A DNA stretch of 64,000 nucleotides from the NCBI GenBank assembly GCA_964016885.1, contig OZ024740.1:68448001-68512000 (forward strand), read 5' to 3'. Shown piece by piece: positions 42,124-44,341 of the stretch (within the stretch, counting starts at the first letter, position 1; every line of letters begins with the position of its first letter). The stretch comes from Eledone cirrhosa. Lineage: Eukaryota. The position numbers and the translations under genes are program-made. The notes under the pieces were generated by a model. The model was given only the letters and a program-made list of their open reading frames with translations. It made no database searches and was not told the DNA's origin.

Positions 42124-43396
42124 AAATTACACAACATACATACGTCAACATACATACCTACATCAGCACACATCTCTACCAACATATAAACACACATATA
42201 AATACTATGACATAGGTAAACACACATGCTCTATGGTGCAACACAAAAAAATATATGTGTATATATATATATATATATATATATATATATATATATATAT
42301 ATATAGTGAATATATGTATGTGTATATATATATATATATATATAGTGAATATATGTATGTATATATATAGTGAATATCATTTCACACATTTTATTGTTAA
42401 CATTTTTGATGTTCTATTAAGAGAAACGATTTTACTGAAAAAATCCAATAATGTACACCATTTTACCAGGGGGAAAAATACTGGTCCACACACACACACA
42501 CACACACACACACACACACACACACACACACACACACACACATATATATATATATATATATACACACAGACATACACACGCGTACATTAACATACAAAGA
42601 GACTTATACACACACACACACACGCACTTCTCCGTATAAGACAAAAGCTGAAAAATATCTTTTGACATGCTAAAATACCCCCCATTGCTTTCAGACACAT
42701 TCTTACTGATCATCCCTGATACCACGAATTACTCTGCTACACACACACACACACACACACACACACACACACACACACACACACACACACACACACACAC
42801 ACACACTTATCTTAATAGCCATTTGACACACATCCCTGCTAACCATTGTCATAAACATCGAACACCTTACTACTACTACTACACACACACACACACACAC
42901 ACACACATATTTGTTGTGAAAGAGTCATTTCTCAATCTTGGCGCAAAACCAATTTTTTATTCACATGACCTCTACCGACCAATCAAAATTGTTTTGACCA
43001 CAAGAATTTTTGCAAACACCAAATAGCGCTGGAGCCACTTTTTTAACATAAAAACAGGTAGAATTCCCAAAACTAATTAGATCAGAGCAAACAACACGGA
43101 CACTCTATCTCAAAATTATTGTTGAAAAGCATTTAGAAATGCGCAACCGGTAAAAACTTTAAAACTTAAAACCACAACTGCATACTAACCCATACAATCA
43201 CTAATACTCTTTTATCCCTAATTAAACCATTTTTCAACTGTGAACAATTTGTCAGCATTTTCTATACCGTTTACCAATATATATATATATGCCTGACCGA
43301 TTTAACTCACTCAATATGCAAATTAGGCTGCTCAGCCGTTAATTTTCATAAGGAAAGTATATACTTTCGAACGTTCAACTATCTGGCAGATGGGTA

Positions 43397-43441
43397 AACG
43401 GTGCTGATGATAGCTAACAAGCTTGAAACTAGTACATCGTT
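43397..43441 (+). ncRNA. Type I hammerhead ribozyme, family A
   Basis: aacggtg CTGATGA t agct aaca agct t GAAA ctag TA catcgtt; predicted cut after 43434. Confidence 0.9.
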
Positions 43442-43862
43442 CCTGTGTCAGTGTTGAACAAAAAGGTGACGTGGTTGCCTTAACACCGTATGGCATAAAT
43501 TCAGGCTGTTCAGTTTGTTTACAAACGAACAAAGCGACGTTAGCGCCGCTAAACTGATACGTGCATATATGTATGTGTACCTGTATGCATATGTGTGTAT
43601 ATATGTATATATATGTATATATGTGCATGCTACTGTACGTCTGTATACATATATGTATGTACGTATACATGCGTACTTACATTTAAGTAAGTGCCATACT
43701 AAGAGTGAGAAATGAAATTTCGTTTTCATTTTGTTTCAATTTATCGTTTTCGGTATGCCTGACCGATTTAACTCACTCAATATGCAAATTAGGCTGCTCA
43801 GCCGTTAATTTTCATAAGGAAAGTATATACTTTCGAACGTTCAACTATCTGGCAGATGGGTA

Positions 43863-43907
43863 AACGGTGCTGATGATAGCTAACAAGCTTGAAACTAGTA
43901 CATCGTT
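43863..43907 (+). ncRNA. Type I hammerhead ribozyme, family A
   Basis: Identical to 43397-43441; predicted cut after 43900. Confidence 0.9.
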
Positions 43908-44341
43908 CCTGTGTCAGTGTTGAACAAAAAGGTGACGTGGTTGCCTTAACACCGTATGGCATAAATTCAGGCTGTTCAGTTTGTTTACAAACGAACAAAG
44001 CGACGTTAGCGCCGCTAAACTGATACGTGCATATATGTATGTGTACCTGTATGCATATGTGTGTATATATGTATATATATGTATATATGTGCATGCTACT
44101 GTACGTCTGTATACATATATGTATGTACGTATACATGCGTACTTACATTTAAGTAAGTGCCATACTAAGAGTGAGAAATGAAATTTCGTTTTCATTTTGT
44201 TTCAATTTATATATATATATATATATATATATATATATATATATATATATATATATATATATATATATATATATATATATATATATATATATATAAATAT
44301 ATATATATATATATATAAATATATATATATACATATATATA

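Follow-up and report, generated by a model that had tools for sequence, protein, structure and literature searches.

A young two-unit hammerhead retrozyme in a (TA)n tract of the Eledone cirrhosa genome, with snRNA-gene-like promoter motifs and a probable Penelope-like helper

Metazoan non-LTR retrozymes, described from coral, mussel and axolotl, are short ORF-less tandem repeats of low GC content (PMC7229834). Each unit carries one canonical type I hammerhead, and Penelope-like elements (PLEs) co-occur with them (PMC7229834). A 2026 preprint argues that retrozymes originated from PLEs (10.64898/2026.07.22.740005). According to the accessible part of a review, promoters seem to be missing from animal retrozymes, and no motif in them tells which retrotransposon is the helper (PMC7761336). 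For newt satellite 2, a promoter has been reported (Coats 1994, as cited in PMC2220036) that is read by RNA polymerase (Pol) II (PMC6765202). The locus that we describe here resembles the metazoan retrozymes in all of the structural respects listed above. It shows the features of the class, being non-coding, below 50% GC, without LTR layout and arranged in tandem with a type I hammerhead in each unit, and it represents a non-LTR retrozyme family that is new, in a class itself already known. Searches of a paper collection with few subscription titles turned up neither this family nor any retrozyme with a U6-type element, and hammerheads do not come up in the accessible text of a repeat annotation for Octopus vulgaris (PMC13282606).

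We analyzed a 64,000-nt stretch of contig OZ024740.1 (positions 68,448,001 to 68,512,000 of the forward strand), which we call the window and to which all coordinates refer unless stated otherwise. The features at and around the locus are as follows.

36593..37521, no strand assigned: older family copy, inverted arm plus partial tandem, 79% identity
40333..43283, +: adjoining 5'-truncated PLE with reverse transcriptase (RT), CxxC linker and GIY-YIG, Neptune/Nematis-like; a separate, older insertion
43278..43289, no strand assigned: left (TA)n target tract, common to the 3' end of the adjoining PLE
43288..43753, +: retrozyme unit 1, 466 nt, 37% GC, without credible ORF
43316..43326 (copy 2: 43782-43792), +: octamer-like upstream element ATGCAAATTAG, as in host U6, U6atac, RNase MRP and tRNA-Sec genes
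43332..43337 (copy 2: 43798), +: TCAGCC, a weak candidate for a PSE core, lying 26 nt ahead of the TATA box at U1/U2-like spacing
43358..43363 (copy 2: 43824-43829), +: TATA box, 42 nt past the element; putative start at ~43388 (copy 2: ~43854)
43390..43446, +: hammerhead 1, canonical type I; predicted cut after 43434
43435..43900, +: predicted release product, a monomer or circle of 466 nt that would include the unit 2 promoter motifs
43507..43552, +: pair of small hairpins in which subfamilies differ by compensatory changes
43555..43682, +: long AT-rich hairpin, of varying length among copies; stops near the second 3' end (unit ~398)
43754..44210, +: retrozyme unit 2, 457 nt, without the last 9 nt; 100% identical to unit 1 over 457 nt
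43856..43912, +: hammerhead 2, identical to hammerhead 1; predicted cut after 43900
44209..44343, no strand assigned: right (TA)n tract
50788..51817, no strand assigned: older family copy, inverted arm plus partial tandem, 79% identity
54559..54691, -: 3' fragment of the retrozyme family

A preliminary description of this locus had read it as a retrozyme made of two essentially identical 466-nt units, recently inserted into (TA)n and without a credible ORF. The identity of the units is complete, but the second is only 457 nt long, stopping at unit position 457, the most frequent 3' end in the family. The (TA)n setting is as described, and any target-site duplication is not readable inside it. 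The ATG-started ORFs of at least 40 aa (48 aa sense; 93 and 112 aa antisense) all run through AT microsatellite and are translations of it, in agreement with the lack of a credible ORF. A recent insertion is also upheld, as the nearest sampled relatives lie 3 substitutions per 466 nt away and all three are present in both window units. Overall, the retrozyme reading was supported, with promoter-like motifs and inverted arms coming on top of it.

Both hammerheads match, letter for letter and in their predicted cut positions, what had been proposed. Helix I (AACGGUG/CAUCGUU) comprises six inner pairs, a loop-1 bulge UA(A/U) and an outer helix, and helix II, AGCU(AACA)AGCU, has four pairs above a U.U at its base. 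The core is CUGAUGA plus GAAA, helix III is the palindrome ACUAGU, and the cut sites are GUA. The Rfam comparison suggested in the preliminary description did not bring a formal assignment: no hammerhead model reaches its gathering score, and only Hammerhead_HH9 scores at all, at 18.5 bits against a cut-off of 52, while miRNA-like Rfam matches in the unit correspond to the AT hairpin. Still, the motif is not a chance occurrence, because its 36-nt core has 10,391 exact matches in the genome vs 0 for a reversed control. Each of three families has a different palindrome as helix III (ACUAGU, ACAUGU and AUGCAU); palindromy there is expected if two hammerheads have to come together for cleavage (PMC4209133). 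A preprint reports in vitro cleavage for only 1 of 9 dimers of predicted frog retrozymes (10.64898/2026.07.22.740005).

Across 32 sequences, 95.8% of hammerhead cells are paired, compared to 30-46% in slid controls, and one helix I pair appears as G.U, U.G, A-U and C-G and is broken in none of them. Four pairs in the downstream hairpins show 10-13 double changes, and these covariation counts come from few independent events. For the structure as a whole, two of five covariation measures, the pair counts, were no better than shuffles. Subfamilies differ in loop 2 and, within the core, at variable position 7 alone; the other core nucleotides are kept, a conservation partly built in by the search patterns. 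The compensatory changes support the view that both the hammerhead and the downstream hairpins would be under selection at the RNA level. The predicted fold of the 466-nt monomer or circle (-155 kcal/mol, z -7.3) owes its stability mostly to the AT hairpin. The minimum-energy fold computed for the unit or circle differs from the active hammerhead fold. Helix II is present in the computed circle with pair probabilities of 0.9-0.99, and helix I is present in part.

The family is large, as a genome-wide copy check made clear. Pattern matching with the hammerhead core gave, besides the exact matches, 25,357 relaxed matches in the 3.0-Gb genome, with 0 in controls. In 600 kb chosen without any search, a small sample, we found 10 loci, equal to about one locus per 60 kb and ~0.9% of the sampled DNA. 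By abundance, the family is a notable component of this genome. Four of its loci lie within the 64-kb window. Subfamilies diverge by up to ~25%, and unit length ranges from 410 to 540 nt. Arrays of tens of units with higher-order repeats occur on the window contig at 51.77-51.79 Mb and 53.36 Mb (L229, L230); these are the retrozyme turning into satellite DNA. Diverged relatives with ~72% identity, family E, lie on the same contig at ~68389500 (-) and ~68621000 (+), and their units carry an inner tRNA-like short repeat and retain the promoter motifs.

The window holds further repeats. At least four other hammerhead families are present (10669 and 11452, -; 33808 and 37699, +; 50548, -; 50680 and 62279, +), several as inverted pairs, and the one at 10669 has an octamer-like element ~290 nt upstream, without a TATA at 42. 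An abundant short (TA)n repeat that ends in a near-perfect ~50-bp hairpin occurs at 44344-44530, 19412-19544 and 27192-27644 and in many sampled stretches. A tRNA-like Rfam match at 28067-28137 (+; 37 bits) is probably a SINE head, and a 353-nt tandem repeat at 60834-61558 (2.1 copies) showed no hammerhead core.

To characterize insertion, we mapped 151 same-strand runs in 89 hammerhead-anchored stretches. Run 3' ends fall at unit 440-458 in 72 of the 151 and at 371-406 in 63, with 16 elsewhere, and they nearly always abut (TA)n, while 5' ends are scattered round the unit. In 45 of the 89 stretches an arm is inverted, and the outer end of each arm then falls at one or other of these 3' sites. 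Every feature of PLE-type insertion is present: the 3' end is fixed, the 5' end is truncated, tandems are partial, 5' arms occur inverted and the target is a microsatellite. Inverted arms with TA-type flanks are the described PLE insertion pattern (PMC8557442), and the coding PLE adjoining the unit shows the same arms and flanks. It is mainly because this layout equals that of the coding PLE that we name a PLE as helper, and judged from insertion structure the retrozyme is probably mobilized by one. Autonomous PLEs coexist in the genome in many families, one with many open 784-aa ORFs, and at least 10 GIY-YIG types occur among the sampled stretches. In a comparison by eye of two PLE families, no 3' end shared with the unit was seen.

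The adjoining PLE family is one candidate helper. Its ORF in the window (40183-42123) corresponds to residues 189-784 of a 784-aa protein with RT, CX4CxxC linker and GIY-YIG, and such a linker is the hallmark of the Neptune and Nematis clades (PMC8557442). The preliminary description had placed an open PLE ORF 1.2 kb upstream of the unit. The neighbor is indeed a PLE, but this copy is 5'-truncated, and the two elements touch rather than lying 1.2 kb apart because the PLE 3' UTR reaches the TA tract abutting the unit. Relaxed scanning of both strands of this 1.15-kb, CA-rich 3' UTR turned up no hammerhead. To our knowledge, hammerheads have been described as universal in Neptune/Nematis-like PLEs. 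The window copy is 97.7% identical to its peers, whereas the peers are 99.8% alike, so the unit likely landed later in the TA flank of the PLE. The proposed tie to this neighbor thus stands as to position, with both elements targeting (TA)n, but is no more than positional, the PLE copy being the older of the two. A preference of the retrozyme for PLE 3' flanks was considered and dropped (3/21 with the window, p 0.01-0.07; 2/20 without it). The adjoining family itself is very active, given the likeness of its peers and its many open 784-aa ORFs (L061-L080). A second PLE family, broken in the window (20196-21447 and 22161-22292, -; also L101 and L116), has its own hammerhead in the 3' UTR, and a third, at ~62% protein identity, has one too.

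Turning to the RNA that is copied, 76 of the 151 runs are longer than one unit and 124 of the 151 have an intact cut-site junction, which means that the template had been either ligated or left uncut. Units of one locus diverge by a median of 0.4% (142 pairs) vs 3.4% between loci (4,323 pairs), and 38 rare variants are common to all units of their locus. In 13 of 16 multi-unit loci there is no variant shared by a subset of units, which differ by singletons only. Near-identical units with variants private to each locus would fit rolling-circle reverse transcription, and we somewhat favor a circular template. Some older arrays were expanded later by DNA-level duplication; the alternation of two unit types at L155 and L211 fits such a process. 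L159 has mixed subfamilies. A dimeric circle as the source of the alternating arrays was rejected at L155, because the differences of unit 1 from units 3 and 5 are those expected from DNA duplication, and at L211 it is probably wrong as well. The window's three private changes are all A to G and lie within the hairpin. An A-to-I editing footprint was rejected family-wide, with A>G vs T>C at 9 to 7 (p 0.35; seven complex loci left out).

Several other explanations could account for parts of this pattern. That the unit is a pseudo-LTR or 3' UTR of the adjoining or another coding PLE is suggested by its abutting the PLE 3' end in the same orientation, and frog retrozymes are related to PLE pseudo-LTRs (10.64898/2026.07.22.740005). 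Unit pieces also occur in 4 of 20 other fetched PLE stretches, within 120 nt downstream in 2 of them. However, in all 20 stretches (19 loci) the PLE ends at the equivalent of window 43277-43290, in (TA)n and with the unit excluded, and among 109 unit-anchored stretches (683 kb; the four nearest cases read by eye) 0 of 30 GIY-YIG ORF ends run into the unit. This is the situation that the preliminary description had named as counting against a retrozyme, and these checks did not find it. Moreover, the repeat period is one unit and not one PLE, and the window PLE copy is older than the unit. We thus regard this account as highly improbable; the unit may nevertheless derive from a pseudo-LTR in the distant past, and copies linked to an ORF may exist at fewer than ~3% of loci. 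Another candidate is a SINE-like element moved by a microsatellite-targeting LINE, given that LINE ORFs are present in sampled stretches, that no 3' sequence in common with a PLE was seen and that LINEs or PLEs have been named as possible helpers (PMC7229834). Yet the unit has no poly(A) tail, and the outer ends of its inverted arms fall on the same pair of 3' sites, like those of coding PLE copies. LINE twin-priming inversions are not known to look like such arms. A LINE helper therefore seems improbable.

The same PLE passenger could instead be copied from linear multimeric or cut RNA, with read-through of genomic tandems and DNA duplication building the arrays and the hammerhead only trimming. 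DNA-level duplication at L155 and L211 and the satellite-like higher-order arrays speak for it, as do 5 of 30 5' ends in the unselected sample that lie at unit 151-159, just past the cut (p 0.001, with the interval chosen afterwards). By contrast, the hammerhead-anchored sample has no pile-up of 5' ends at either the cut (148-160, 0 of 151) or the start (96-106, 5 of 151). The youngest loci already have multi-unit arrays on both arms (L116, with 12 full units and 3 substitutions; L212, with 9 units; L135), and linear copying alone would presumably shorten arrays in each generation. A linear template is thus unlikely. Large arrays and the missing Rfam call would also suit a plain DNA-level minisatellite with an incidental or dead hammerhead look-alike. 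This is hardly credible for dispersed copies with fixed 3' and variable 5' ends, compensatory changes and retained core nucleotides.

Each hammerhead is preceded by motifs resembling those of host snRNA-type genes. From the same genome we fetched seven versions of U6-type promoters (three U6 types, one U6atac, RNase MRP and two tRNA-Sec). All 7 of these element-bearing promoters have ATG(C/G)(A/T)AAT(T/G)AG at -76 to -79 and a TATA box at -30/-31. Several other U6 and U6atac copies are without the element and pseudogene-like, and in tandem-cluster U6 copies (L199, L200, L202-L204) it is replaced by other sequence. In the unit, AATATGCAAATTAGG equals one tRNA-Sec promoter in 15 of 15 letters, with TATATA 42 nt on. 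The element-plus-TATA pattern arose in only 6 of 20,000 shuffles of the unit, and a gene-derived matrix ranks family units 1st, 2nd, 3rd and 6th within the window.

Relatives of the unit vary in how well they keep this layout. E1, a relative with 72% identity that was identified through homology, retains 16 of the 17 motif letters vs 17 of 32 in the spacer (p 0.004, Fisher; p 0.03 against the 72% background). In subfamilies A and B, conservation of the element does not clearly exceed that of the spacer; one young subfamily has two changes in the element, and another has an 8-nt deletion after the TATA box. Outside the retrozyme family, the element has 8 matches in 945 kb, and a TATA lies at 42-43 in two, both in family D. 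That family (L070 2517-2990; L108 596-880) is short and ORF-less, with a canonical hammerhead, helix III AUGCAU and an inverted arm. It has the same element-plus-TATA layout without BLAST similarity to the unit; families D and E2 came from searching for the element. Most other sampled hammerhead families are without it.

From these motifs, the unit likely carries its own snRNA-gene-like promoter, and we put the chance that the motifs are functional at slightly better than even. Element-to-TATA spacing is 42 in 187 of 195 units and 42-44 in related families, compared to 46-48 in all 7 genes, and because of this difference the promoter is a putative one, as is any assignment of its polymerase. 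Insect snRNA promoters hold their spacing within 1-2 nt (PMC1761439). The window unit contains four T4 runs, and some subfamilies have T6-T7, where host terminators are T5 or longer; Pol III would have difficulty in reading through such runs in a transcript. It may be that the layout is hybrid: a TCAGCC core at U1/U2 distance, transcribed by Pol II in the manner of newt satellite 2. Host U1, U2 and RNase P genes carry TCAGT in place of the U6-type element. A U1/U2 matrix, trained without 4 genes that have no TCAGT core, scores the window unit at -3.1 vs 8.5-20.4 for real genes, and E1 at 9.4 at the same offset. Host U1/U2 promoters also have a TATA-like box near -30, and the U1/U2-type TCAGT element of the RNase P RNA gene (L231; L161-L192) hints at Pol II transcription.

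Taken together, we consider it probable that this is a young two-unit, protein-less, high-copy element that is self-promoted, cuts itself to 466-nt monomers or circles and is copied in trans into (TA)n by a PLE. Transcription would begin ~46 nt before the first cut and read through into unit 2. The two hammerheads would then join through helix III, a palindrome, to cleave after positions 43434 and 43900, and the monomer, now holding the unit 2 promoter, would be ligated to a circle. A PLE protein would nick (TA)n and prime at unit ~457 or ~398, where the observed 3' ends lie. Copying would run for a variable length, in many cases beyond one full turn, and would in many cases start at both nicks, giving inverted arms. 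Some older arrays then grow by DNA-level duplication. On this model, the window locus could itself be a source, because its two cuts follow one promoter and enclose another.

More tentatively, and with slightly less than an even chance in our view, these retrozymes may be self-promoting, in that a captured upstream promoter of snRNA type, normally untranscribed, enters the RNA through cutting and circularization, any insertion longer than about one unit becomes a new source, and the helper is Penelope-like; at least two unrelated-looking hammerhead families of this genome would belong here. The 8 dispersed U6 copies that we inspected have no element. Since upstream promoters are lost in this way on retroposition, a tandem or circular form would be needed if the promoter is real, which would explain that need and make the newt satellite 2 promoter a general design and no exception. 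Two gaps stated in review, what transcribes a retrozyme and what mobilizes it, become testable here.

Compared to known systems, the unit hammerhead fits the canonical description, with a 6-bp helix I, loops 1 and 2 and a short palindromic helix III (PMC4209133, PMC7229834). Its helix III is like that of axolotl HHR_Amex1 (1 bp plus a palindromic tetraloop), and its U.U is like that of HHR_Amex2 (PMC7229834). At 466 nt (410-540 across copies), the unit is longer than the ~170-400 nt of metazoan retrozymes (PMC7229834) and within the 51-972 nt of the preprint (10.64898/2026.07.22.740005). Its inverted arms and (TA)n targeting are not met in the accessible descriptions of metazoan retrozymes (PMC7229834), and its promoter-like motifs set it apart from retrozymes that seem promoterless in the consulted part of the review (PMC7761336). 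Partial tandems, inverted 5' arms, microsatellite targets and a palindromic helix III are shared with PLE pseudo-LTR hammerheads and non-autonomous PLEs, for which the comparators are those of PMC4209133, Chlamydomonas MRC1 (PMC8557442) and frog retrozymes (10.64898/2026.07.22.740005). Unlike in these, the unit's hammerhead is canonical and not minimal, the unit is never in line with an ORF in our sample, and no 3' similarity to an autonomous family was found. The Pol III promoter of Schistosoma SM-alpha is tRNA-like and gene-internal, whereas the unit layout is of the upstream type, with no tRNA-like part noted. Still, SM-alpha resembles the unit in having a promoter followed by a hammerhead, with a tandem needed to pass the promoter on (PMC6765202). 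Newt satellite 2 is likewise a tandem hammerhead repeat with a weak helix III and an internal snRNA-type promoter; by contrast, the element of our unit matches host U6-type (Pol III) genes, its spacing is shorter, and its copies are mostly dispersed and short.
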